The notes beneath the pieces were generated by a model. It made no database searches. It saw only the letters and a program-made list of their open reading frames with translations, and had not been told where the DNA came from. A program made the position numbers and the translations under genes. From the IMG/VR virus record IMGVR_UViG_2541047931_000014, positions 1-12,415 of that record: DNA of 12,415 nucleotides. One strand, written 5' to 3'. This stretch comes from a virus (taxonomy: Duplodnaviria > Heunggongvirae > Uroviricota > Caudoviricetes). Shown one piece after another: positions 1 to 12,415 of the stretch (position 1 is its first letter; each line of letters starts with the position of its first letter).

Positions 1-177
1 GCGGAGGTAATACACCGTAAGAGCTGGAAAAACCGTGCAGAAGTGGAACTGGCCACACTCACGTGGGTGGACTGGTATAACAATCGACGATTGCTGGAAA
101 GGCTGGGCCATACTCCTCCGGCAGAAGCAGAAAAAGCTTATTATGCTTCCATCGGAAACGATGATCTGGCAGCCTGA
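1..177 (+). CDS. IS3-family transposase (OrfB-like), C-terminal fragment; 5' part lies outside the window
   Basis: Frame 1 reads ...LTWVDWYNNRRLLERLGHTPPAEAEKAYYASIGNDDLAA* with stop TGA at 175-177. The W-Y-N-x-R-R-L-x-x-x-L-G-x-x-P-P-x-E pattern is the conserved C-terminal tail of IS3-family DDE transposases (recalled family knowledge). The track ORF 35..370 is a different frame. Confidence 0.6.
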   Translation, partial: AEVIHRKSWKNRAEVELATLTWVDWYNNRRLLERLGHTPPAEAEKAYYASIGNDDLAA

Positions 178-280
178 GTTCACAGATAAAACACTCTCCA
201 GGAAACCCGGGGCGGTTCAATCCGTACGGGGACGGGATACCGTTTTAATTCACAACAGCGAACAGAGTAATTACAGGGGA
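1..280 (+). mobile_element. Right end of an IS3-family insertion sequence (partial); exact terminal inverted repeat not identified
   Basis: The transposase ORF ends at 177 and the next gene's RBS and start are at about 275-287, so the IS terminus must lie in about 180-280. I cannot place the inverted repeat without its left-end partner. Confidence 0.4.
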
Positions 281-284
281 AGGC

Positions 285-782
285 ATGACAAAGCTGACCA
301 TAAACAGAAAACCGAAGGGCATTTACGGCACGCCGCAGAAAACAGCACAGGCGGCGCAGCAGCAGAATAAAACCACATCGGCGCATAAAGTGATGCCAGA
401 TAACCAGAACACACAGCAGAAGCTCACAGGAGCAACACCGCGGCGGCGTATGACCAAACAGCAGCGTAAAAACCGCAGACGCGTTAACCGTCTTATTGAG
501 CTATGGCCTGAATTATTCAGCCAGGAATCACCTAAGCCGCTTAAGGTGGGGATATTTGACGACCTGATACAGGATATTGCCGCGAGAGGTATTTCACTCG
601 GACAGGGAACACTACGCGCAACGCTGGCGCGTTATGTGCAGACTCCGCGCTATTACCGCGCCCTGGTAGCTGGTGGCGCGCGTTACGACCTGAAAGGCCA
701 GCCGTGCGGCGAGGTAACACCACTACAACAGACGCACGCAGGAAAACTACTGGAGGAGATGAATGGAAATAGTAAGAAATGA
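285..782 (+). CDS. ProQ/FinO-family RNA-binding protein (FinO-like RNA chaperone) with a basic, Gln-rich N-terminal extension
   Basis: ATG at 285 preceded by AGGGGAAGG. The C-terminal half reads [14 protein letters not shown]...[37 protein letters not shown], matching the ProQ/FinO domain signature as I recall it from E. coli ProQ (PLKIGIF.DL ... Y ... G..R.DL.G.PCGE). The N-terminal ~75 aa are K/R/Q-rich and low complexity. Confidence 0.75.
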
Positions 783-1179
783 TCACGCACATGGTCGCCG
801 TGCAGGTGATCACATTGTGGATGAAATTGCGGAAAAACAAAGAGTTGACATTGTTGTCAGTGTCACAGTCGAGAGCGCGAAGCGCCAAAATAAGCGTATA
901 AATGATCATTCAGATGTACATGGTGTGATCACTCGTTTACGCCAGACTTTTGTAACTCGTGAAGAGATGATTGAAGCTATTGACCAGCATACAGCATGTA
1001 TCAGCGTCAGGGATATACCGGAGATCATTGCTAACTACTTCATGATCACCAGACGCCTTTACCGGAGAAAAGACAAGAGCACGGTTAACCGTCTCCTGAT
1101 GTCTGATATTCGCGAATACCTGCAAGAAAGGGGCTATGTGAATCCACCAGAACAGCACTACGGAAGAGTCGGAGGCTAA
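763..1179 (+). CDS. Hypothetical protein, 138 aa, translationally coupled to the upstream FinO-like gene
   Basis: ATG at 763 preceded by GGAGGAG (752-758); overlaps the 3' end of the FinO-like gene by 20 nt. No recognisable motif. Confidence 0.5.
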
Positions 1180-1419
1180 CTAAAACCCTGTACCGAAGAG
1201 CGGCGGCGCGATGGGGTGAAGTAATGCAGTTGGGGAACTGACAAGGAACGGTATTACATATCAATGCGACGACTGGAATGTTCCAGGAAGGCACAGAGGC
1301 CACCGAAGCAACCGGATAATTTAGAAGACCTGAAACGGTCGCTTAAACGCACTGAAAAAGAAATGGGGATAGATGGGATCGGGAAATCAGTATGGCGTAA
1401 CTACCAGAAGTAAGCACAG

Positions 1420-1445
1420 AGCCGGAGCAATCCGGCTTTTTTTTG
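1420..1445 (+). terminator. Rho-independent terminator
   Basis: AGCCGGA-GCAA-TCCGGCT hairpin (1420-1437) followed by an 8-T run (1438-1445). Confidence 0.65.
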
Positions 1446-1544
1446 GCTGAAATCAATCAATCTGTTTTTGTGATAGAAATATGTTTATCTACCACTTTTT
1501 CAGATCAATAATGTGCATAGTTTAGTCAGTAAGAGGAAATTGCT

Positions 1545-1751
1545 GTGAATTGTATTAACGACCTGAACACAGGCGATGTCAGAGGTGGTTCCGTTCATCT
1601 GGATGCACAGACCGTGATGCGCCTTAAGCAGTACAGAATCGACCATGTGAACAATCACCCTGATCAGCCATTACCAGGCGTGGCGCAGATTGTCAGACAT
1701 GCCGTAAACGCCTGGCTTAATCAGAATGGTTTTGCATCGGGGGGTGAGTAA
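1545..1751 (+). CDS. Small hypothetical protein (68 aa); possible small DNA-binding regulator (speculative)
   Basis: GTG start at 1545 with AAGAGGAAA about 8 nt upstream, lying 100 nt after the terminator in an AT-rich promoter-like stretch. The segment GSVHLDAQTVMRLKQYRID ... VAQIVRHAVNAWL loosely resembles a strand-helix-helix layout, but this is not a confident call. Confidence 0.4.
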   Translation: MNCINDLNTGDVRGGSVHLDAQTVMRLKQYRIDHVNNHPDQPLPGVAQIVRHAVNAWLNQNGFASGGE

Positions 1752-1847
1752 TGAATCGCTGGTACAGCATCAAAGCAGAGGGACGCCAATGTTATCTAAC
1801 TCAGGTTTTATGAATTCTGACTCCCGATTCAAAATAGGAGGTTACTA

Positions 1848-4379
1848 ATGCCAGTCGTACCAACAGTATCCGGACGTCAGGTTGAGAGCCGTGGAGTTCA
1901 GTCAGCAGGCTTACAGACGTTTTCTCAGCCAGGTATTAGTGATGCTTTTGTTCGTGCAGGAGCAGAAGCAATTGATATTCTGGGTCAGGCAAAACAGCGT
2001 GCCAATATTGCCTTGGTTCAGGAGGCATCCCTTAAACTCAGTCAGACAGGCAGTGATCTGCTGAATAATCCTGAAACAGGATTGCTTAACCTGAAAGGGA
2101 AAAATGCTATTGGAAAAGGCCATGAGTATACACAGCAGTTTGATGCTCAGATCGAACAACTGGCTATGTCGCTGCCGGATGAACAGGCTCGTAATGCTTT
2201 CATGCAGCAGGCGCAGCAGCAGCGTATTCAGTTCGCTACGCAGGCCGGGAGGTACGAGATAGGGCAAATAAATGCCTACGAAGAAGGCCAGTTTCAGGCT
2301 ACGCTGCTGAACAATGGTAAAAATGCCGCAGCATTGTATGGCGACAACGCAGCATACATATTGGCTAATACGCAAACTTTCCAGCAAATTGAGGAGTACG
2401 GCATTGCGCATGGCTGGAGCGACGAGCAGATTCGGGCCAGGAAAATCGAGTTTAAAGAAGCAACAGCAAAAGCAACTGCTCAAAATGCTATTGGAGCAAA
2501 CTATCTTCAGGTAAGACAGCAAAACGGCGAGTTAAGCGATACTGCTGCTGGAGCTCGCCGTGCTGTAGCAGATAGTGGATCTTCCGATCGTATCCGCGGT
2601 ATACGCAACAATAACCCCGGCAATCTTGAATACAGCAAAACTAATCCGTGGGTTGGGCAGACTGGTGATGATGGTCGCTTTGCCAAATTCGAAACCCCTG
2701 AACACGGTATTCGTGCATTAGGGCGGAACCTGATGTCGTATCAGCGGCAGGGTATTGATACCGTCAGTGAGATAATTAATCGCTGGGCACCGCCCACTGA
2801 TAAAAATGACACAATGTCGTATATCAAAGCAGTGTGCGAACAACTTGGCGTTTCTGCTGATGAGCCTCTCGATGCATCTAATCCGGATACCCTGAAGGCG
2901 CTTTGTGCAGCCATTATCCATCATGAAAACGGTAGCCAGCCATACAGTGATCAGCAGTTAACTGCTGGTGTTAGTGCCGCGCTGGGGCTTTCTCAGCTAC
3001 CGACAAAAAATAAACGTTATACCGGTGTAGCCTGGTTCGATGCTTTAAGTGAATCAGATCAGGCCAGCGTGTTGCGACAGACTGATGCACTAGCCAGACA
3101 ACAGCAGGCTGAATATAAAACGATGCTCGACAGCCGGGTTCGCGATGCGACGGCTGCGTATATGCGTGGCGTTGAATTTCCTAACCCACCTGGTGAGGAT
3201 GATTTTATTGCAGCTTATGGAGTCAGAGAAGGAAACCTGCGATATACCGAGTTTAAGAATACGCAGATCGCCGGACAGTATATAGGCTCTTTCCGCAACA
3301 TGCCGACAAGCAGCATTACAGCATATGTTGAGCAATTACGCCCGGATACTGGTGATACAGGGGAGGGGTATGCGTCTCGTGCGGAGTTATTCGACCGGGT
3401 ATCGGCGGCAGCCACGAAGGTAATAACCCAGAGGCAGAATAATCCGTTTAGTGCAGCGGTGGAAATCGGATCCTATAAGCCGATCACCAGCAACAACCCT
3501 GACGACATCACTGCTGAGGTGGCTAACCGTTTCTCGTCGCAGGAAAGCTTACGCGCGTTGGGAATTAATGCCCCAATCCTCAATAGTGAAGAGGCGGCTG
3601 CGCTGGCACAGCAGGTGCGCGGCACTCAGAACGTTGACCAGACAATTAAACTATTGCAGAGCATGGGGGAAAAGCTACCTGCGCCAGCAATACGGCAGGT
3701 GGCATCTGTAATTGCTCCGAACAGTGCAGCAACAGCCTATTCTGCGCTGCTGCTGGGCACGCCGGATAATCAGTACGATAACACCAGGCCGTCGATCCCA
3801 TATAGTCAGTTCATCGGGTATAAGCCGACGATGAACAAGTACGACGTTGCAAAGGTTATTCTTTCCGGTGACCAACTACTGAATCCGACGAAGGCTATGA
3901 AGAATGCGGGCATAACTCCGGTACAGTTGCCGAGCGAAGATAAAATGAAGCGCGCTTTCGACGAACAGGTTGGTAATGCATTTGCCCGTAACCCAGAGAC
4001 GCGCCAGATCAGTTATAGCCTTTTCAAAGCCGCTTACGCAGGAATCGCTTATCAGTCTGGTAATACGTCTATGACGAGCACAGATGCGGTTAACTCCGAT
4101 GTGGCGGAGAAAGCTGCGCAGTACGCAACAGGCGGTGTATACAAGAGATTTAATGGTGGTGATGTTGTAATGCCTTTCGGCATGGATGAATCCACTTTCA
4201 AAGATCGCTATACCACATCAGCGAAACAAGCACTGAAAGATGCCGGACTTAACGTAAATGCAGTGTCAAACTTCACACCAGTTAATATCGGCAATAACCG
4301 GTATCGGCTGGTAAATGGTAGCGGACGCTGGGCAACAGATCCCAGAACCAATGAAGCTATTGTCGTGAGGGTTGAATAA
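1848..4379 (+). CDS. Large hypothetical protein (843 aa); phage ejection/internal-virion-like, with a conserved-looking NNPGN region that may be a cell-wall-hydrolase-like domain
   Basis: ATG at 1848 with AGGAGG at 1836-1841; 2.5-kb uninterrupted frame; Ala/Gln/Gly-rich. RIRGIRNNNPGNLEY...GRFAKFETPEHGIRALGRNL...INRWAPP lies at about nt 2590-2950. No Walker A or helicase motifs. Confidence 0.85.
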   Translation: MPVVPTVSGRQVESRGVQSAGLQTFSQPGISDAFVRAGAEAIDILGQAKQRANIALVQEASLKLSQTGSDLLNNPETGLLNLKGKNAIGKGHEYTQQFDAQIEQLAMSLPDEQARNAFMQQAQQQRIQFATQAGRYEIGQINAYEEGQFQATLLNNGKNAAALYGDNAAYILANTQTFQQIEEYGIAHGWSDEQIRARKIEFKEATAKATAQNAIGANYLQVRQQNGELSDTAAGARRAVADSGSSDRIRGIRNNNPGNLEYSKTNPWVGQTGDDGRFAKFETPEHGIRALGRNLMSYQRQGIDTVSEIINRWAPPTDKNDTMSYIKAVCEQLGVSADEPLDASNPDTLKALCAAIIHHENGSQPYSDQQLTAGVSAALGLSQLPTKNKRYTGVAWFDALSESDQASVLRQTDALARQQQAEYKTMLDSRVRDATAAYMRGVEFPNPPGEDDFIAAYGVREGNLRYTEFKNTQIAGQYIGSFRNMPTSSITAYVEQLRPDTGDTGEGYASRAELFDRVSAAATKVITQRQNNPFSAAVEIGSYKPITSNNPDDITAEVANRFSSQESLRALGINAPILNSEEAAALAQQVRGTQNVDQTIKLLQSMGEKLPAPAIRQVASVIAPNSAATAYSALLLGTPDNQYDNTRPSIPYSQFIGYKPTMNKYDVAKVILSGDQLLNPTKAMKNAGITPVQLPSEDKMKRAFDEQVGNAFARNPETRQISYSLFKAAYAGIAYQSGNTSMTSTDAVNSDVAEKAAQYATGGVYKRFNGGDVVMPFGMDESTFKDRYTTSAKQALKDAGLNVNAVSNFTPVNIGNNRYRLVNGSGRWATDPRTNEAIVVRVE

Positions 4380-6439
4380 TGTCTGATGTTTTTTCTTTGG
4401 CTCCAGAAGGTCAGGCATGGATTGACGACAAAACAGTTGCCAACCCAGCAAGGCCAGAAGACTACGATCCGACTCCCTTCCAGGGTTCAGGTACTGCACT
4501 TTTTAGCGGCGTGGCGGAGGGGGCTCTCGGTCTCGCGCAGTCTGCCGTCGGATTCAGCAAGCGCCTGATTAGCGATCCGGCATTTACCGCAGACGTGGCA
4601 CCGACTGTTAACATTTTTCGGGAGATGTTCCCTGATGCTGACAAAACACTGAATGATACATACGACACGATCGGAAAACAGTTACAGGATGCCCGCAGCT
4701 ATGTGAAGCCTGATGCAGGCAGCCAGGGAATGGCGGCAGAGGTATTAAATGAGCTTGGTAAATTTGTTCCTGCAATCGGAACAACTATGTTTGGCGGTCC
4801 CCTCATCGGCGCTGCTACAACCTTCAGTTCTACGTATGAGCAATCCTATCAGGATTTTAAAGGGAAGGGAGTAGACGAGGCTACGGCGCGTAACCTGGCA
4901 ACGCAGCAGAGCCTTTTCAATGCTGTGGGTATGGCCTTACCCGCTGCCGTCGGCACCACACTGGCAACGCGCATTGCCTCAGGTGTGGCAATCAACACCG
5001 GATTCGGTGGACTGAACCGTTACTCAGTAGGCGCAACACTGGAGGAAAAAGGCTACACGGAGATGGCAAAACAGTACCGGGTATTTGACGGTCAGGCGAT
5101 GTTAGTCGATGCCGTTTTAGGCGGGGTCTTTGGTGGCGTTCATCACCTGACTACCCATAATAACCATGATGGTACAGAGTCGAACATTTCTGCAGAAGAA
5201 ATAAAATCAACTTTTGGTGAACATTATCAGCAATCTCCTGATGGTAACATTGAGTCAATGGTTCGTGATTTATCTGATTCAGGAGTAATAGAACTTATTA
5301 ATGAACCAGCAATAAAAAATAGTGATGGAGAAATACTTCTGAATAAAGGTCATGTGACAGTAGCTTCTGGAAAAGAACCAATAATAAGAATAAATATTAA
5401 TGGATTAAAAGACCATGAAGAACTGTTAGAAACCCTTCATCACGAGGCGCTTCATCTTGAGCAGCGCCATTACCCTGACTGGAAGGCCAGAAAGCTAGCT
5501 AATGCTGTACTTAAATCTGCAAACAAGCATTCTGACTATCCTGAATTTGCATATGGGATGTCACAATATTATGAATATAAGAAAAGGGGTGAGTACCCTG
5601 AAACATATCCTGAGTGGTTGTACGCTGAAGAAGTTGCCGCACATGCAGTAAATCCATCTCTAAAGACAAGCGTTTCATCATGGGAAAAAATTATTTCAGG
5701 TTTTAAAGCCTATATATTCAGATACAGTGGTATTCAGGTTGGAACCGTTACACCTGAGCAGTTACGGTTACTCGTAAGTATGCGTCTTCGCAATATGAAA
5801 CTGGAAGCCGCAGTAGAAAAAGTTTTTGGTATCCGGGCGAGGGAAAGAATAAAACCAAGCGATATTGATGCAGCCCACATTTTGAATGAGGGGCTTCATT
5901 ACGATATTGAATCGTCACCAGTGCTTCACACCAGCAATGAGAGCATCAACAGCCATGTTGACGCCATGGATGAAGCATACAGGCAACTTAATGATGGTCA
6001 GCCTGTAAATGTTGGGGGGATGGCGCGAGGGCTTGATGGTCCATTGCGATCAGATATATCTGATACTTACCAAGAGCAATACCATGAAATACAAAAGGTT
6101 TTTGAAGAAAATGGTGTCAGATATGAAACATCATCAGAGCCAATTAGTGAATCGCCTGTCCCTCGTGCTGAAAGTGCTTTCTCATCGGCTGGTGAACACA
6201 GAGGGGACGTCAGCGTTGATCCAGATACAGGGCAGGTTCTCTCATCCAACAGCTATGACCTTATGGCTGCCAGGGACATGGCTGTTGCCAATCCTGAGCT
6301 GACTATAGCTCACCCGGAAACCGGAAACCCGACAAAACTTTCTGATCTCCTGGCTGAGTTGGATGAACAGATTAAGACAGTCCAGAACGAATCGAAGGTT
6401 TATTCTGTAGCGGCAGCGTGCTTCTTGAGGAACCCATAA
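4379..6439 (+). CDS. Large hypothetical protein (686 aa); Gly-rich hydrophobic N-terminal half and a low-GC C-terminal segment containing an HEXXH (HEALH) motif
   Basis: ATG at 4379 overlaps the upstream stop (TAATG, 4377-4381). Gly/Ala-rich hydrophobic stretches (GTTMFGGPLIGAATTF, MALPAAVGTTLATRIASGVAINTGFGG, VDAVLGGVFGGV). HEALH is encoded at 5441-5455 within a segment of about 35% GC (about 5160-5760) versus roughly 45-57% in the flanking coding sequence. Confidence 0.85.
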   Translation: MSDVFSLAPEGQAWIDDKTVANPARPEDYDPTPFQGSGTALFSGVAEGALGLAQSAVGFSKRLISDPAFTADVAPTVNIFREMFPDADKTLNDTYDTIGKQLQDARSYVKPDAGSQGMAAEVLNELGKFVPAIGTTMFGGPLIGAATTFSSTYEQSYQDFKGKGVDEATARNLATQQSLFNAVGMALPAAVGTTLATRIASGVAINTGFGGLNRYSVGATLEEKGYTEMAKQYRVFDGQAMLVDAVLGGVFGGVHHLTTHNNHDGTESNISAEEIKSTFGEHYQQSPDGNIESMVRDLSDSGVIELINEPAIKNSDGEILLNKGHVTVASGKEPIIRININGLKDHEELLETLHHEALHLEQRHYPDWKARKLANAVLKSANKHSDYPEFAYGMSQYYEYKKRGEYPETYPEWLYAEEVAAHAVNPSLKTSVSSWEKIISGFKAYIFRYSGIQVGTVTPEQLRLLVSMRLRNMKLEAAVEKVFGIRARERIKPSDIDAAHILNEGLHYDIESSPVLHTSNESINSHVDAMDEAYRQLNDGQPVNVGGMARGLDGPLRSDISDTYQEQYHEIQKVFEENGVRYETSSEPISESPVPRAESAFSSAGEHRGDVSVDPDTGQVLSSNSYDLMAARDMAVANPELTIAHPETGNPTKLSDLLAELDEQIKTVQNESKVYSVAAACFLRNP

Positions 6440-9195
6440 TGAAACAGGCATGTGTTGAAGCTATTGCGCAGACACTTGGTCGCCAGCCAAAGGCTGATGA
6501 GCTGAAAAATATTGAAGATCGTATCAAAGAAGCTGTGCAGCATGTGCACAGAAAGAATGCAAAAGAAGGCAAAAGTGGTATTCCTGATGCTCAAACATAC
6601 ATGGATGCAGCAGAACTGGTACGCCAGCGTGTGGTTCATGATGTGTACAAGAAAAGACAGCGTGTTGCCCAGAATGCGATCGCCATCAGTAAAATTACTG
6701 ACACTCTCGATGCTAACATCCCGCCTGATCAGCAGACACCTGTTAATTTGCAGCAGTTTATTTTTGCTGGCCGACGATCGAGAGACAAAGCTGATATCTC
6801 CGTTACTTCTGCTGAAGAGCTTGCAATTGGGGCATATCAGGACTGGTCCCGTCAGCTCAGTGCTGAACTTCTAAAAGCAGGTGATGACGTCCGCAAATTC
6901 TTCGAGCAGAGCAGGGCGCTTGGAGAGCAGCGGTTTCGGAGTGTATTCGACAGGCAGGCGGCAAAGTCTGCACAACTCCAGATCCTGAAAGAAATTTATG
7001 GCGAAGATACCGGGAATCCCCTGGCGAAGAAAATTGCACAGATTTGGAAGGATGTAACAGGGCGTGTTCGTCATGAGATGAACGACAACGGCTTTGACAT
7101 AGGCCTGCGAGAAGACTGGCATACGCCATATGTGGATGATGCTGACCTTATTCGCAATGCCGGGCGCGAAGAATGGCTGGCATCGTTACCAGTGGCAGAG
7201 CAAGCTACAGTACGTCTTTCAGGTCGCCAGCCACCTATTGAGTTTGCCCGCCAGAAATGGGTTGATGACGCTTACAACACGCAGGATCGCAGCAATTACG
7301 TTAATCCTGACGGCAGCATTATGAATGACGTCGAGTACCGTCAGGCACTGGAAGCGATCTTTGAAACGAAGGCCACTGATGGGGCAAACAAAATTGAGCC
7401 CGGTACATTTATGGGAGACGGAGGAATAAAGAGCCGTGGTTCTCAGCACAGGGTGATGGCGTTCAAGGATGCGCAGTCACACTTCGCCTATATGGAGCGA
7501 TACACTCAGCAGCCGCTGGTGGGGGTGATGATGTCGCACCTGCAATCATCATCCAGGGATTTGGGCGTCGTTAAAGCCTTTGGTCCGGACGCCGAAAGAA
7601 ACTTTTCCCTGGTACTGGATCGCATCTATAAGCGCGCAGTAACAGGCGGGAAACGCAAAAAAGAAATGGAGGATGAGGCCAAATTAGTTGCCCGTATGTT
7701 CAACTCAATGGCTGGCCTAAATGGTGTCGCTTCATCGAGTGTGTTCTCTTCAGCAGTTGGTGGTCTGCGTAACCTGATGACCAGCGCCATGCTTGGCACC
7801 AGCGTACTGACAGCAACCAGCGACCAGGCAATTATGCGGGCAAATGCGCAGGCGCTGGGCTTTACCCGTGGTGGAATGCGGCTTTCCGTTAACACTATCA
7901 AAAACCTGTTTAGTGGAGATGCCAAAAAGGCGAATGCTGAACTCGGTCTGCTGGTGGATTCACATGCTGCTGTGGTTTCGAAAATGGGCGGGTTTGACTT
8001 GTCTCGCGGCATAACTGGCTGGTTCGCAGAGAAGACACTGAAGTGGTCCGGGCTGATCGCTATGGACCGCGCAAACAAAGCGTCGTTTGGTCTCCTGATG
8101 TACAAAAACATTGGCGAGCTGACCAGAAAATTTAAGACGCTGGACGATATAAAAGGAACCGATAAAACCATTCTGGCTAACAAGGGATGGAGCAATGAGG
8201 ACTGGGCCATCATGGCAGCGGCAGAACTCAGGCCGATGACTACTGCCGGGCATATGGGGATGACGCCAGACGCGATTTACGCTGTGCCCGATAACGTAAT
8301 CGCCGACATTATGGCAGACCGTATTGCCCGGATTCGTGCCGGGAGTGAAAAGGCACTGGCAGCCCTTGGAGATCTCCCTCCAGAACGCCTGAAACGGATG
8401 AAAGAAGCATTCGACGCAGAGGCTGAGCAGACCATCACGCGCATGATTCGTAATGCACGCGCTGAAGCAGCCCAGAAATTGCTGGGAATTACGCACGGTG
8501 AGATGACCAATGCTGTGACCACCGCTACGGGTATTGATACATATGCCCATGACGATGCTGGCGAGTTAATGAAGAGCTTCATGCTCTTCAAAACAACCCC
8601 ATTTGCTGGATTTCGGCAACTTGTTAACAGAACACGGGATTTGGACACCGTTCCGGCCATTAAATTTCTGGCCTCATATATCGGGGGAACAACTCTTGCT
8701 GGTATGTTTGCGATCCAGATGAACAGTTTGTTAAATGGTAATGATCCGCTGGATATGACAAAACCAACCACATGGGTTCAGGCTTTACTGAAAGGTGGTT
8801 CGTTCGGTATCTACGGTGATTTTATTTTCCAGGACCATACGCAATATGGCTCCAGCATCGGTGCCACTATGGGTGGCCCTGTGTTGAGCTTTGCAGAGCA
8901 GTTAACAAAATTACTGATTACTAACCCACAGAAGGCTCTACAGGGTGAAGAAACATCATTCGGTGCCGATGCACTGAAAACAGCCCGCATGATCACCCCA
9001 TTCGCAAACCTGTGGTATGCGAAAGCGATAACCAATCACCTGATATTGCAACAACTTCAGGAGATGGCAAACCCTGGTTACAATGATCGAGTAAGGGACC
9101 GCGCGCAACGGGAGTTCGACATAACGAGTTGGTGGGAACCGGGTGCTATTGCGCCACGTAGAGCACCGGATTTTGGAAAGGCGGTAGGGGAATGA
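6439..9195 (+). CDS. Large hypothetical protein (918 aa from the ATG at 6439; the track's 6418 start is an upstream in-frame GTG); ejection/internal-virion-like
   Basis: ATG at 6439 overlaps the upstream stop in the same TAATG arrangement (6437-6441), with GAGGAA 7 nt upstream. 2.75-kb frame. No nucleotide-binding motifs seen. Confidence 0.85.
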   Translation: MKQACVEAIAQTLGRQPKADELKNIEDRIKEAVQHVHRKNAKEGKSGIPDAQTYMDAAELVRQRVVHDVYKKRQRVAQNAIAISKITDTLDANIPPDQQTPVNLQQFIFAGRRSRDKADISVTSAEELAIGAYQDWSRQLSAELLKAGDDVRKFFEQSRALGEQRFRSVFDRQAAKSAQLQILKEIYGEDTGNPLAKKIAQIWKDVTGRVRHEMNDNGFDIGLREDWHTPYVDDADLIRNAGREEWLASLPVAEQATVRLSGRQPPIEFARQKWVDDAYNTQDRSNYVNPDGSIMNDVEYRQALEAIFETKATDGANKIEPGTFMGDGGIKSRGSQHRVMAFKDAQSHFAYMERYTQQPLVGVMMSHLQSSSRDLGVVKAFGPDAERNFSLVLDRIYKRAVTGGKRKKEMEDEAKLVARMFNSMAGLNGVASSSVFSSAVGGLRNLMTSAMLGTSVLTATSDQAIMRANAQALGFTRGGMRLSVNTIKNLFSGDAKKANAELGLLVDSHAAVVSKMGGFDLSRGITGWFAEKTLKWSGLIAMDRANKASFGLLMYKNIGELTRKFKTLDDIKGTDKTILANKGWSNEDWAIMAAAELRPMTTAGHMGMTPDAIYAVPDNVIADIMADRIARIRAGSEKALAALGDLPPERLKRMKEAFDAEAEQTITRMIRNARAEAAQKLLGITHGEMTNAVTTATGIDTYAHDDAGELMKSFMLFKTTPFAGFRQLVNRTRDLDTVPAIKFLASYIGGTTLAGMFAIQMNSLLNGNDPLDMTKPTTWVQALLKGGSFGIYGDFIFQDHTQYGSSIGATMGGPVLSFAEQLTKLLITNPQKALQGEETSFGADALKTARMITPFANLWYAKAITNHLILQQLQEMANPGYNDRVRDRAQREFDITSWWEPGAIAPRRAPDFGKAVGE

Positions 9196-9533
9196 AAAAG
9201 TTAAATACACCAACCAAAAGAGTTGGGGGGCTTCTGATTGTCATTGGAATTATATTTATACTTGCATCTATAATAGAAATATCAAGTAATGAGTTTGCTA
9301 TTTCTGATAGTCCATATTATCGATCGCTAAATGCATATGATATTATTTTTATGTATTTAGAGCGAATTACAGATACTTTCATCATGACTCTAACATTTCA
9401 AACATGGAGTAGCCGTTTCAGTATATTAATGTTAGTAGGGTTTTGTTTATTTATTGTTGGTGTTCTTATTTCATATTTTTACGATGCTGGAATTGGCAGG
9501 GTTGTTAAGTGGATAAGAACGGGTAATTGGTGA
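9192..9533 (+). CDS. Small integral membrane protein (113 aa, two predicted transmembrane helices), very low GC; candidate exclusion/immunity-type cargo
   Basis: ATG at 9192 overlaps the upstream stop (ATGA, 9192-9195). Hydrophobic stretches LLIVIGIIFILASII and FSILMLVGFCLFIVGVLISYF. GC is visibly much lower than in the upstream genes. Confidence 0.7.
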   Translation: MKKLNTPTKRVGGLLIVIGIIFILASIIEISSNEFAISDSPYYRSLNAYDIIFMYLERITDTFIMTLTFQTWSSRFSILMLVGFCLFIVGVLISYFYDAGIGRVVKWIRTGNW

Positions 9534-9864
9534 TTATAAGCAAGCTATTGGTTTCATTGTTTATATCGTTGTCGGAACTTTTTCAACTGACAGCAATCAT
9601 AGCCGGGCTTGAATCGTGGTGGGGATTGCACTGGATAATTGCAGCCCCATTGCTTTCATCGTGAGCTATATTCCATTTGTTGGAGCGATTGTTGGTATGG
9701 TTGGCGCTATGGATGTATGGTGTTGGGAGTGGTGGCAGGCTGGCCTTCTATTCTTTGGCGGATCATCTTTGCTATTGTCAGCGGTGGAATGTCATCATTT
9801 TTCGAATGGCTATCATTCAGAAAAAGAGCGTGACATGTCACAGGCCGCTTTCGCGGCCTTGTTT

Positions 9865-10026
9865 TTAACGAATGCCACCACCGCCCGGGCGGGAATCCGC
9901 AGAACGCCCACCGCAGCGGGAGCCGTCAGCGGCAGTATCGCTGTCGTGCTGACAACGACCGGCAAAGGCCTGAGTTGAAGCTACCAGAGACAACAAAACG
10001 AACAGTGCAGCAAATGCTTTTTTCAT
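9865..10026 (-). CDS. Candidate small secreted peptide (53 aa) with an N-terminal Sec-type signal peptide
   Basis: Minus-strand ATG at 10026-10024 encodes MKKAFAALFVLLSLVASTQAFA|GRCQHDSDTAADGSRCGGRSADSRPGGGGIR, with an AxA-type cleavage site. Candidate promoter TTGACG-N16-TATAGA lies just upstream on the minus strand (about 10040-10070). It is antisense to overlapping plus-strand ORFs, so assignment is uncertain. Confidence 0.35.
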   Translation of the reverse strand: MKKAFAALFVLLSLVASTQAFAGRCQHDSDTAADGSRCGGRSADSRPGGGGIR

Positions 10027-10096
10027 TGTGAAATTTCCATCTATAAGCCACCTCGATGTGGCGTCAATGAATGTAGCACTGACTTTTGTTTCGTCC

Positions 10097-10119
10097 ACAA
10101 AAAAGCCCGCGCTGCGGGC
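10097..10119 (-). terminator. Rho-independent terminator acting on the minus strand
   Basis: GC-rich hairpin GCCCGC-GCT-GCGGGC (10105-10119) preceded on the plus strand by an A-run (10097-10104), so the minus strand reads hairpin then TTTTTTGT. Confidence 0.5.
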
Positions 10120-10728
10120 TTACCAAAACTTGTACCACGGGGATTTATCCTTCAATGGACAATCCTTCCATCGTGTGGCCAGCCATTCATATTCTTTGTC
10201 TTTTCTTCAGTACCGGCTTTGCATCTTCTACACCCTGAAAGATGTCGTTTTATGGTGTATCTGATGATTTATTCCCTAACAATAGATATTCGAAAAATTA
10301 ATCAGTTAAAACAATTATTTGGATAATTTCAGGTAAAAACTATCTTAATCTTCTGGTGGATCTCAATGCGCCGTGACGGTATCGGGATTAAGGGCGTGGA
10401 TATTCGCGATATATGCCGCTACACCCCTCAACAGTAATAGATATGCGCTTTTCACTCTCTCCTTTCACTGCTGAGAACGGCAACAACGTGCCACAGGAAC
10501 GCGCTGTAATCGATTCTGACGCACTTAATTGCGTTGGGTAATGGTTTGCCAGCCTGTGGGGGTAACTCTGTTTTATGAGGCTTTGGCTATAGTGCAAAAA
10601 TGCACTTTGTCTTGCCTCTCAATTTGATGAGACTGGAACGACAACAGGACAGACCACCAGCAACAGTTACCGTATTCAGCCGTTCTGTGGCACCAGTGGA
10701 ACTATCCACCCCTGCTTTCAGCAATGTG

Positions 10729-10782
10729 TTTGCGGGTTATTTTGGGGCGTTTGCGGGTTATTTGGGATGTTTTGCGGGTTAT
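10729..10782. repeat. Iteron-like array: three perfect 12-bp direct repeats TTTGCGGGTTAT at 21-bp phasing
   Basis: Copies at 10729-10740, 10750-10761 and 10771-10782, separated by 9-bp spacers. Confidence 0.85.
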
Positions 10783-10857
10783 GCGATGCTTGAATAATGA
10801 ACAGTGCATTTTGCAACATATTGATACTAAAGAACAAAAAATAGTTAGCACGCTAAG

Positions 10858-10884
10858 ATAACCCGGTAACCCGCATAACCCGCA
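10858..10884. repeat. Three tandem inverted copies of the iteron core
   Basis: ATAACCCGG (10858-10866), TAACCCGCA (10867-10875) and ATAACCCGCA (10875-10884) are reverse complements of TGCGGGTTAT. They are separated from the direct array by a 75-bp AT-rich spacer. Confidence 0.75.
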
Positions 10885-11406
10885 CTGTTTTGTATATATA
10901 TACGAAAAATTGCATTCAGGAGGGGGGATCGAAATCCCTACAACCCATTGCTTATGGGACCGCCGCCTCGTCAAATTTTTACACCCGCGAAATAAAAAAT
11001 ACTTCACGCTGGTGGGCATGATGCTGATATGAGAGGCTTCCATAACGCCACCATTCGAAACTATGCAAATCTGCATAGAAAAGGGGATGCCTGATACAAT
11101 ACCCTCGCCCGATAAAATCACACCGATAAACTCATCTGCCACGAGTAGAAAGAGCGAACGAACCCGATACGCAGTAATGCTGGTCGGGTCCAGCTTTTTA
11201 AGGCGGCTGTAGATATCAGGCCATCCGTGATCATCCACCAGCGTAATTGCTGAACGCTTTAAAAAAACGTGTACATAAGGGTGTACATAATCAAAAACCG
11301 CATTAGAAAGAAACCAGCTACAATGCGGCATTGAAGCCAACACTCTACAAACAGATTCAACATCGAATAACTCGTAACGCCAATTCTTACTTTTCCGCCT
11401 TCACAA

Positions 11407-11438
11407 ATGCCGCCACTCAAACAGAGCGGCATTTTTCT
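11407..11438 (+). terminator. Rho-independent terminator with no plus-strand ORF feeding into it (orphan)
   Basis: ATGCCGC - 11-nt loop - GCGGCAT (11407-11431) followed by TTTTTCTT. All three plus-strand frames are closed immediately upstream. Confidence 0.5.
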
Positions 11439-11530
11439 TCCCCGCAACATTCAATTCTGTTTTGCGTGCCTGCTCCAGATTTTGCGATGTTTTTTTGCCC
11501 AGCACACTGAGAACGTGAGATACTCACAAC

Positions 11531-11546
11531 TGTATATAAATACAGT
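11531..11546 (+). promoter_or_regulatory. LexA operator (SOS box) in the dinD promoter
   Basis: CTGTATATAAATACAG matches the CTGT-N8-ACAG consensus and sits 45 nt upstream of the dinD start, overlapping a TATATAAAT -10-like element. Confidence 0.8.
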
Positions 11547-11590
11547 TACAGATTTACTTTCTTTGCAATTGATATCACATGGAGTGGGCA

Positions 11591-12415
11591 ATGAACGAAC
11601 ATCATCAACCTTTTGAAGAGATAAAACTGATTAATGCAAACGGAGCAGAACAATGGTCAGCAAGACAACTTGGGAAACTACTGGGTTATTCAGAGTATCG
11701 TCACTTTATACCTGTATTAACGCGCGCCAAAGAAGCCTGTGAGAACAGTGGTCACACAATTGATGACCATTTCGAGGAGATCCTCGATATGGTCAAAATT
11801 GGCTCAAATGCCAAAAGAGCATTAAAAGACATCGTACTCTCCCGCTATGCCTGTTACCTGGTAGTACAAAACGGCGCCCCTGCGAAACCGGTCATTGCGG
11901 CAGGGCAGACTTATTTTGCTATCCAGACCCGACGGCAGGAGCTTGCTGACGATGAAGCATTTAAGCAACTTCGTGAAGACGAAAAGCGTCTGTTTCTGAG
12001 AAATGAGTTGAAAGAACATAACAAACAATTGGTTGAGGCAGCACAGCAAGCTGGGGTAGCGACAGCTACTGATTTCGCCATATTTCAGAATCATGGTTAC
12101 CAGGGGCTGTATGGTGGATTAGATCAGAAAGCTATTCATCAGCGGAAGGGGCTGAAAAAGAATCAGAAGATCCTGGATCATATGGGTTCAACAGAACTGG
12201 CGGCTAATCTCTTTCGAGCTACCCAAACAGAAGAAAAACTCAAGCGGGATGGCGTGAATTCAAAACAGCAAGCAAACACCACACACTTTGACGTGGGTCG
12301 CAAGGTGAGGCAAACCATTCAGGAACTTGGCGGAACCATGCCTGAGGAGTTGCCGACCCCGCAGGTCAGCATCAAGCAGTTGGAAAACAGTGTAAAAATT
12401 ACAGAGAAGAAATAG
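11591..12415 (+). CDS. dinD: DNA-damage-inducible protein D (DinD), apparently intact at 274 aa
   Basis: ATG at 11591 with GGAGTGGG just upstream (the track's 11579 start is an upstream in-frame alternative). The sequence MNEHHQPFEEIKLINANGAEQWSARQLGKLLGYSEY... matches E. coli DinD as I recall it, and the LexA box directly upstream supports SOS regulation. Stop TAG at 12413-12415. Confidence 0.8.
   Translation: MNEHHQPFEEIKLINANGAEQWSARQLGKLLGYSEYRHFIPVLTRAKEACENSGHTIDDHFEEILDMVKIGSNAKRALKDIVLSRYACYLVVQNGAPAKPVIAAGQTYFAIQTRRQELADDEAFKQLREDEKRLFLRNELKEHNKQLVEAAQQAGVATATDFAIFQNHGYQGLYGGLDQKAIHQRKGLKKNQKILDHMGSTELAANLFRATQTEEKLKRDGVNSKQQANTTHFDVGRKVRQTIQELGGTMPEELPTPQVSIKQLENSVKITEKK

Follow-up and report, generated by a model that had tools for sequence, protein, structure and literature searches.

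Zincin-like metallopeptidase (MPTase) domains are the commonest domains of polyvalent proteins (Iyer, Burroughs, Anand, de Souza, Aravind 2017, J Bacteriol 199:e00245-17, PMC5512222). They are built from an N-terminal helix, a three-stranded sheet, a helix bearing the HExxH motif, and a second helix that supplies a Glu ligand. Two roles have been proposed for them in this setting, namely self-processing of the protein that carries them or cleavage of a protein of the host or of a competitor (Iyer et al. 2017, PMC5512222). One such domain was assigned to residues 2130–2448 of the virion RNA polymerase (vRNAP) of phage N4, where an HHpred match to anthrax lethal factor placed it in the zincin-like MPTase class (Iyer et al. 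2017, PMC5512222). Here, we describe an HExxH domain in the middle of a homolog of gp16 of Salmonella phage epsilon15. Its gene lies on a chromosomal island, in a 12,415-nt stretch of E. coli chromosomal DNA (positions 1 to 12,415 of IMG/VR record IMGVR_UViG_2541047931_000014, hereafter the window) whose open reading frame (ORF) list contains three large ORFs at 1848–4379, 4379–6439, and 6439–9195. We put the probability at about 0.62 that the locus is, as a whole, best explained as a gp16 carrier with a recombined cassette encoding a delivered, zincin-like, metallopeptidase-type domain. See Table 1 for the coordinates of the features discussed.

A gp16 gene with a replaced middle

The product of ORF 4379–6439 is, by homology, a member of the epsilon15 gp16 family. 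It resembles epsilon15 gp16 (NP_848224) and the other Uetakevirus gp16 proteins (phrog_1145) in its N-terminal 257 residues and its C-terminal 196 residues, both of which are homologous to theirs. It also keeps the gp15-gp16-gp17 synteny of epsilon15, including the codon overlaps at both gene junctions, where its start overlaps with the gp15-homolog stop and its stop with the gp17-homolog start. However, the middle 232 residues are unrelated to those of epsilon15 gp16, whose own middle has no HExxH. The N-terminal domain, which is common to all gp16 homologs, is Gly/Ala-rich and has several moderately hydrophobic stretches (Kyte-Doolittle peaks of 1.2–1.3). As for the neighboring genes, the epsilon15-type gp14 is annotated as a T7 gp14-family core protein, and gp15 of epsilon15 has a lytic transglycosylase domain according to its record annotation. 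By analogy, the product of 4379–6439 would be an internal virion (ejection) protein that is incorporated into particles and delivered.

We compared the window at the DNA level with Salmonella phage epsilon15, Enterobacter phage BUCT554, and the epsilon15-like prophage of E. coli ET358. Homology to these three runs from 1847 to 5148/5152 and then from 5848/5849 to 9195. The homologous block extends from the gp15 start codon to the gp17 stop codon (9195) and is broken only by positions 5150–5848. The middle is the one variable part of gp16 among homologs. It has 232 residues in the window copy, an unrelated sequence of ~180 residues takes its place in epsilon15 and E. coli prophages, and BUCT554 and one E. 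coli prophage have a ~65-residue linker there. The segment in the window resembles no other gp16 at either the DNA or the protein level. From the breakpoints, together with the single variable region of gp16, it follows that this low-GC segment is a replaced cassette at a permissive site. As read from these comparisons, a cassette of ~700 bases is recombined into the middle of the gp16 gene. The gp15 and gp17 homologs of the window are collinear with their epsilon15 counterparts and have no swapped cassette. No donor lineage or intermediate relatives of the cassette were found in protein, GTDB, IMG/VR, or metagenome searches.

Base composition sets the cassette apart as well. An earlier note on this DNA had drawn attention to a low-GC segment at 5160–5760 in the second giant gene and had suggested a horizontally swapped domain. 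Sliding-window GC falls from ~0.50–0.58 to 0.31–0.42 across 5100–5800. In 60-nt blocks, GC is 0.35, 0.37, 0.28, and 0.28 over 5161–5400 and 0.30 over 5521–5580, compared with ~0.47–0.66 at the 5′ end of the same gene, and the cassette at 5150–5848 has an overall GC of 0.383. At third codon positions, the cassette has a GC (GC3) of 61/233 (0.262), compared with 1073/2214 (0.485) for the three large genes outside it (Fisher p = 5e-11). Against same-size windows elsewhere, the lowest of which has a GC3 of 0.395, the cassette has a z of -4.6. The dip is sharpest at third codon positions, where codons 271–345 reach a GC3 of 0.07–0.13. Because third-position GC itself drops, the dip is not an amino-acid effect. 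The low-GC segment therefore stands as first noticed, but its extent does not, as the homology breaks give the wider limits of 5150–5848. The swapped domain is likewise borne out by gp16-like flanks that are 83% and 74% identical to epsilon15 gp16, a middle of variable length that lacks similarity, and a GC3 half that of the flanks. The alignment of homologs that had been proposed as a check found the segment variable, with three different middles among gp16 homologs.

We also considered whether the epsilon15-type middle could be a degenerate HExxH domain in which SRIQQGIIPESMRGLV resembles SGIQVGTVTPEQLRLLV, and rejected this with a hidden Markov model (HMM) score of -0.6 bits and an hhalign probability of 0.1%. 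As a separate observation, residues ~405–425 of epsilon15 gp16 end its middle with SRIQQGIIPESMRGLV, which by eye is like the GIQVGTVTPEQLRLLV tail of the window copy (window 5700–5800). The resemblance between SRIQQGIIPESMRGLV and GIQVGTVTPEQLRLLV is either a coincidence or a relic too short to score.

The HExxH domain and its relatives

The HExxH motif of the cassette is HEALH (CAC GAG GCG CTT CAT). It was found at exactly the positions that the earlier note gave for it, 5441–5455, which are residues 355–359 of the 686-residue ORF. By chance, ~0.01 HExxH would be expected in a protein of 686 residues and 0.04 across the three giant proteins. A chance pentapeptide was ruled out by this expectation of 0.01 per protein and by conservation of the motif in relatives of the domain.

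The cassette matched no Pfam family at E ≤ 10, except for a spurious FapA_N match, and gave no PDB sequence match, no PADLOC match, and no match in a word-index protein search. A phmmer search over 1.84 billion representative proteins returned only a 74-residue fragment of the same protein, and nothing but copies of the same element, 97–100% identical, turned up in GTDB genomes, IMG/VR, and metagenomes. Matches to other proteins came from phrog_10089, "DarB-like antirestriction" (E = 2e-4, segment residues 21–216), and from tblastn. The latter (E ~2e-3) identified giant "DarB-like antirestriction" or "PLxRFG" proteins of 3200–4800 residues in ~60 kb phages that infect Ralstonia, Klebsiella, Serratia, and Ochrobactrum. 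In each giant protein, the match covers the C-terminal half of a ~190-residue unit. The unit contains, in order, D-G-T-I-x-L, L-H-E-x-F-H, E-E-(F/L)-x-A-Y-A-(I/V)-E some 60–75 residues on, and G-x-Q-x-G-x-V-T-P-x-Q-L-R-A-L. HExxH, EE-x-x-A-Y-A, and G-x-Q-x-G-x-VTP-x-QLR are present in all four of the phage polyvalent proteins examined. The counterpart series in the cassette is DGEILL, LHHEALH, AEEVAAHAV, and GIQVGTVTPEQLRLL.

Over ~200 columns, the cassette is 25–30% identical to these polyvalent relatives, with the H, E, H, W, EE, and tail positions invariant. An HMM of 16 members built without the window sequence scored the cassette at 33.9 bits, compared with at most 7.6 for 5000 shuffles, and the C-terminal signature was the highest-scoring portion of the match. 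When the domain alone was aligned by hhalign with a 16-member profile that also left out the window sequence, the probability was 97.1% (E = 7.5e-11, 165 columns), with HExxH and EE in register. On these profile matches, we consider it very likely that the cassette belongs to the polyvalent HExxH family. The unit is flanked in the polyvalent proteins by the Pfam domains LPD3, GNAT, and LPD39, and metagenomic members of the family are fused to PF18760, PF18809, and PF18858, the last of which is LPD39. We take PF18760 and PF18809 to be the ART and PBECR1 domains of polyvalent proteins.

The closest comparison is with the HExxH domains in the giant proteins of Ralstonia phage GP4, Klebsiella phage ZX1, Serratia phage Parlo, and Ochrobactrum phage POI1126. 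They share with the window domain a length of ~190 residues, a location in mid-protein within a phage virion gene module, and the order of motifs (a D-G-x-I strand, HExxH, a variable helical insert, EE-x-x-A-x-A, W, and G-x-Q-x-G-x-VTP-x-QLR). However, the window copy has an extra insertion of ~18 residues ahead of the HExxH helix, and it is low in GC, whereas the known relatives come from high-GC hosts. The carriers also differ greatly, as the window protein has 686 residues and one added domain, whereas the relatives are giant multi-enzyme polyproteins of 3000–4800 residues.

A more remote relationship was found with the C1 region of N4 vRNAP (gp50, residues ~2124–2375; 9pnr, 11gp, and others). 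A protein search with N4 C1 gave two fragments, and a C1 alignment was assembled from the phage records of seven diverse N4-like phages. The family profile matched this seven-member alignment over 120 columns, at 92% (E = 6e-7) with the window sequence and at 91% (E = 9e-7) without it. In this match, the two families line up at the strand, at HExxH, and at (E/N)-E-F-x-A-(Y/W), whether the window sequence is included or left out. Against the single N4 sequence, the family profile gave 57%. In the merged alignment of the two families (16 sequences), H355, E356, E418, and A421 are invariant, and H359 is nearly so. Acidic residues downstream of HEALH had been put forward earlier as a possible third zinc ligand; E418, which lies 59 residues past H359 and is invariant across both families, is now the predicted one. 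N4 vRNAP and the window protein, as predicted, are alike in being ejected podophage virion proteins with an internal HExxH domain. N4 C1 differs in that it has N-E instead of E-E and is without the VTP-x-QLR tail, and its carrier is an RNA polymerase. Pfam has no model over the matching region of the four polyvalent proteins, nor over N4 C1.

The merged profile also matched PDB 9sfn chain G (E = 2.7e-4), which is the 1337-residue internal virion protein gp37 of a phiKMV-type Pseudomonas phage. The HExxH region of this chain matches N4 C1 with an hhalign probability of 96% (E = 2.5e-9). No direct similarity is detectable between the window family and phiKMV gp37, and the two are connected only through N4 C1. 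Like the window protein, as predicted, gp37 is a podophage ejection protein with an internal domain of the same superfamily, in its case HExxH...E-L-V-A-W; the two differ in host and in carrier family, gp37 being T7 gp16-like with a lysozyme domain. The gp37 and N4 C1 matches thus indicate that HExxH domains of this superfamily recur within ejected podophage proteins. The phiKMV-type internal virion protein, as seen in Pseudomonas phages phiNFS and phiNV3, contains HEAVH...KELVAWGL, and its annotation goes no further than "internal virion protein with endolysin domain."

Both AlphaFold models were of low confidence (pLDDT ~50). In them, HEALH is predicted to be helical, and the secondary-structure elements come in the same order as in the MPTase architecture. 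No significant sequence or structural match was found to the solved gluzincins thermolysin, lethal factor, IrrE/ImmA, and SprT/Spartan. We judge a true zincin-like fold to be probable. Two points weigh against reading the domain as a zincin-like peptidase module: the window sequence alone does not detect N4 C1 by hhalign, and the tie to structurally defined zincins is transitive and partly literature-based. The proposal that a zincin-type module had been grafted into an ejection-like protein is supported by the remote homology that leads from the cassette to the polyvalent HExxH family and from there to N4 vRNAP C1.

Selection, proposed mechanism, and rival readings

Of 5426 complete E. coli genomes, 37 carry ORF 4379–6439 in intact form, at an identity of at least 99%. 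Among 11 independent copies, all five polymorphic sites in the cassette are synonymous (S330, D345, R471, V479, and A487), and the gene as a whole has ~7 nonsynonymous and ~28 synonymous sites. From this excess of synonymous sites, we conclude that the protein is under purifying selection, the insert included.

We propose that a low-GC cassette recombined into the permissive middle of the gene, between the conserved N- and C-terminal domains of gp16. These two domains presumably perform the role of gp16 in an epsilon15-type core or ejection apparatus, and the middle would be cargo. The 686-residue protein would travel inside an epsilon15-like capsid and leave it together with the DNA at ejection. 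With H355, H359, and E418 as predicted ligands and E356 as the base, the zincin-like domain of ~190 residues would then act in the envelope or cytoplasm of the recipient. There, it could cut its own carrier, separating or activating the parts, or it could cut a protein of the host or of a rival element early in infection. Zinc binding, peptidase activity, and a substrate are predictions from the conserved residues, and we would give a predicted peptidase that is active after delivery a little less than an even chance.

Three other explanations of the cassette were weighed. The first is that it is a passenger or spacer, either peptidase-derived filler or a packaging or interaction module without catalysis, as may hold for N4 C1. 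The insertion site is tolerant enough for this, since it accommodates anything from a 65-residue linker to unrelated inserts of 180 or 232 residues. Furthermore, N4 vRNAP is reportedly packaged unprocessed, the region that contains its MPTase is needed for encapsidation, and the N4 structure papers report no activity. However, the four catalytic-motif residues are intact in the cassette at only 25–30% identity to its relatives, and retention of HExxH with a distal Glu is not expected of a mere spacer. The polymorphism of the cassette, which is all synonymous, also speaks against filler, and we regard a spacer as rather unlikely.

The second is a metal enzyme other than a peptidase, for example an oxygenase of the Fe/alpha-ketoglutarate (alpha-KG) HExxH type or another hydrolase. 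The N4 vRNAP structure paper notes HExxH in radical-SAM-associated alpha-KG-HExxH enzymes, and no solved peptidase is significant by sequence. The pairing of HExxH with a distal Glu, the predicted strands that precede it, and the HHpred link between N4 and lethal factor (Iyer et al.) nevertheless fit zincins, and the weak PDB matches at the motif are to the zincins Spartan and IrrE, which makes this explanation highly improbable. The third, a decaying relic in which a prophage fragment stranded on the island received a junk low-GC insert by illegitimate recombination and HExxH arose by chance, would suit an island without other virion genes, an island ssb that an IS3-family element has cut in the window's strain, and a PerC gene annotated as frameshifted, but it is largely refuted by ORFs of 843, 686, and 918 residues that are preserved whole, with their start and stop codons overlapping, in 37 genomes, by the strong synonymous excess, by homology borders that coincide exactly with the start of gp15 and the stop of gp17, and by a cassette that is in frame and homologous to a conserved, motif-bearing domain family when ~0.01 HExxH is expected by chance.

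The island and its satellite-like setting

The gp15–gp17 homologs are not in a prophage. They lie on an island of ~19.5 kb between yicC and dinD, which we refer to by its copy in strain GF4. The genes of the GF4 island encode an integrase, AlpA, Rha, a GIY-YIG nuclease, BRO, an Icd-like protein, DUF4222, a DUF927 primase, SSB, ProQ/FinO, and PerC, and its annotation has no capsid, portal, terminase, or tail genes. The island is bounded by a 24-nt direct repeat, CGTGTACATA(AG/GA)GGTGTACATAAT, found at 11268–11291 of the window and at 6813–6836 of the GF4 locus stretch. One copy of the repeat lies upstream of the integrase gene and the other directly before dinD, each with an internal GTGTACATA duplication, and on this layout they are probably attL and attR of the island. 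In 17 other E. coli genomes there are true epsilon15-like prophages, and these have an ordinary gp16. Neither a second gp16 homolog nor a co-resident epsilon15-like prophage was found in any of the 37 island-bearing complete E. coli genomes.

Table 1. Features of the gp16 locus and the island; positions are those of the window unless stated otherwise.
Feature	Position	Strand	Basis or remark
Island	1–11291; whole element, 6813–26395 of the GF4 locus stretch		Integrated between yicC and dinD
epsilon15 gp15 homolog, 843 aa	1848–4379	+	79% aa identity over full length; phrog_992/1044
epsilon15 gp16 homolog, 686 aa	4379–6439	+	phrog_1145, E = 5e-136; tblastn; epsilon15 annotation; alignment
Conserved N-terminal domain, aa 1–257	4379–5149	+	83% aa identity to epsilon15 gp16 aa 1–281
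Foreign low-GC cassette, aa 258–490	5150–5848	+	No DNA homology to epsilon15, ET358, or BUCT554; GC; variable middle
HExxH domain, aa 288–475	5240–5803	+	hhalign 97.1%; alignment; phrog_10089; tblastn
HEALH motif (H355, E356, H359)	5441–5455	+	Two predicted metal ligands and a predicted catalytic base (E356)
E417-E418 in LYAEEVAAHAV	5627–5632	+	E418, predicted third metal ligand, in second conserved helix
C-terminal signature G-x-Q-x-G-x-VTP-x-QLR-x-L...R, aa 451–471	5729–5791	+	Invariant columns G166...R186 in the family alignment
Conserved C-terminal gp16 domain, aa 491–686	5849–6436	+	74% aa identity to epsilon15 gp16 aa 428–634
epsilon15 gp17 homolog, 918 aa, from ATG at 6439	6439–9195	+	89% aa identity over full length; phrog_684

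Several features by which satellites are recognized are present on the island, including an integrase, an AlpA-type regulator, a primase/replication module, and an incomplete set of virion genes. Like the phage-inducible chromosomal islands (PICI) and P4-like satellites of E. coli, it has integrase, AlpA, Icd-like, DUF4222, primase, and SSB genes and no capsid or terminase genes. Unlike these, it has three ejection-protein genes as cargo; on its gene content, it is a putative satellite. A sister island in strain D5 (NZ_CP010145 219547–229422), between cspD and clpS, has the same layout of integrase, Icd-like, DUF4222, primase, and SSB genes. It shares positions 1430–1770 of the window (340 bp, 89.5% identity), directly upstream of the cargo. 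The cargo of the D5 island is a ClpP-like prohead protease/major capsid fusion with DUF1441, which replaces gp15–gp17. This comparison suggests that a regulatory region common to both islands drives morphogenesis modules that can be exchanged, and the arrangement resembles a satellite backbone in which the morphogenesis slot is swappable.

Tentatively, the island may be a new type of satellite that parasitizes epsilon15-like (Uetakevirus) podophages by supplying its own gp15–gp17 ejection/core proteins, with gp16 carrying an injected zincin-like peptidase "warhead" that acts in the next host. We consider this conceivable but doubtful. Such a satellite would use neither capsid remodeling nor packaging redirection. 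The warhead could aid establishment of the satellite, defeat a defense, or sabotage helper particles that incorporate the gp16 copy.

Other features of the window were noted outside the three large genes. Positions 1–219 are the end of an IS3-family element (IS629/IS1203-like, with thousands of E. coli copies), and the ssb gene continues there in GF4; the insertion sequence has therefore cut off the 3′ part of the island ssb in the window's strain. A ProQ/FinO-family RNA-binding protein is encoded at 285–782 (Pfam E = 1e-24). ORF 763–1179, which follows it, resembles the anti-repressor Ant (phrog_63), and the GF4 annotation places a PerC-family regulator with a frameshift farther downstream. 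Directly past the gp17 stop, at 9192–9828, is a second foreign segment of low GC (0.30), and positions 9196–9828 have no match to the GF4 sequence at the same place. As judged from this comparison, 9192–9828 is another variable slot. It contains an ORF of 113 residues (9192–9533) with hydrophobic, membrane-like stretches. The segment lies where epsilon15 has gp18, to which it is unrelated. Toward the right end of the island, at window ~10727–10784 (GF4 stretch 25832–25889), there are two to three 21-nt units in tandem that contain TTGCGGGTTAT, and a further TTGCGGGTTATGCG copy lies just downstream of the primase gene (GF4 stretch 15257–15270). These iteron-like repeats might mark a replication origin or binding sites of a regulator. 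An anti-phage defense system was considered and rejected, as no ORF of the window matched PADLOC, and no RNA gene or tRNA was found in the window.

The locus fits a known theme of polyvalent proteins, and its unusual parts are the epsilon15 gp16 carrier and the satellite-like setting. Ejection proteins of short-tailed phages are poorly understood. The locus shows that epsilon15-type gp16 accepts plug-ins in its middle, one of the natural ones being an enzyme-like domain of a kind predicted to enter the cell with the DNA. With a single domain in 686 residues, the protein offers a compact system for probing the widespread HExxH domains of polyvalent proteins, N4 vRNAP, and phiKMV gp37. For such predicted peptidase domains, the question is one of self-processing or attack on host proteins. 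The cargo-insertion site could also be exploited for protein delivery into bacteria. Finally, a satellite-like island whose virion genes are ejection genes only, of which we found no description in the literature searched, nor of any satellite carrying ejection-protein genes, hints at a hijacking strategy.

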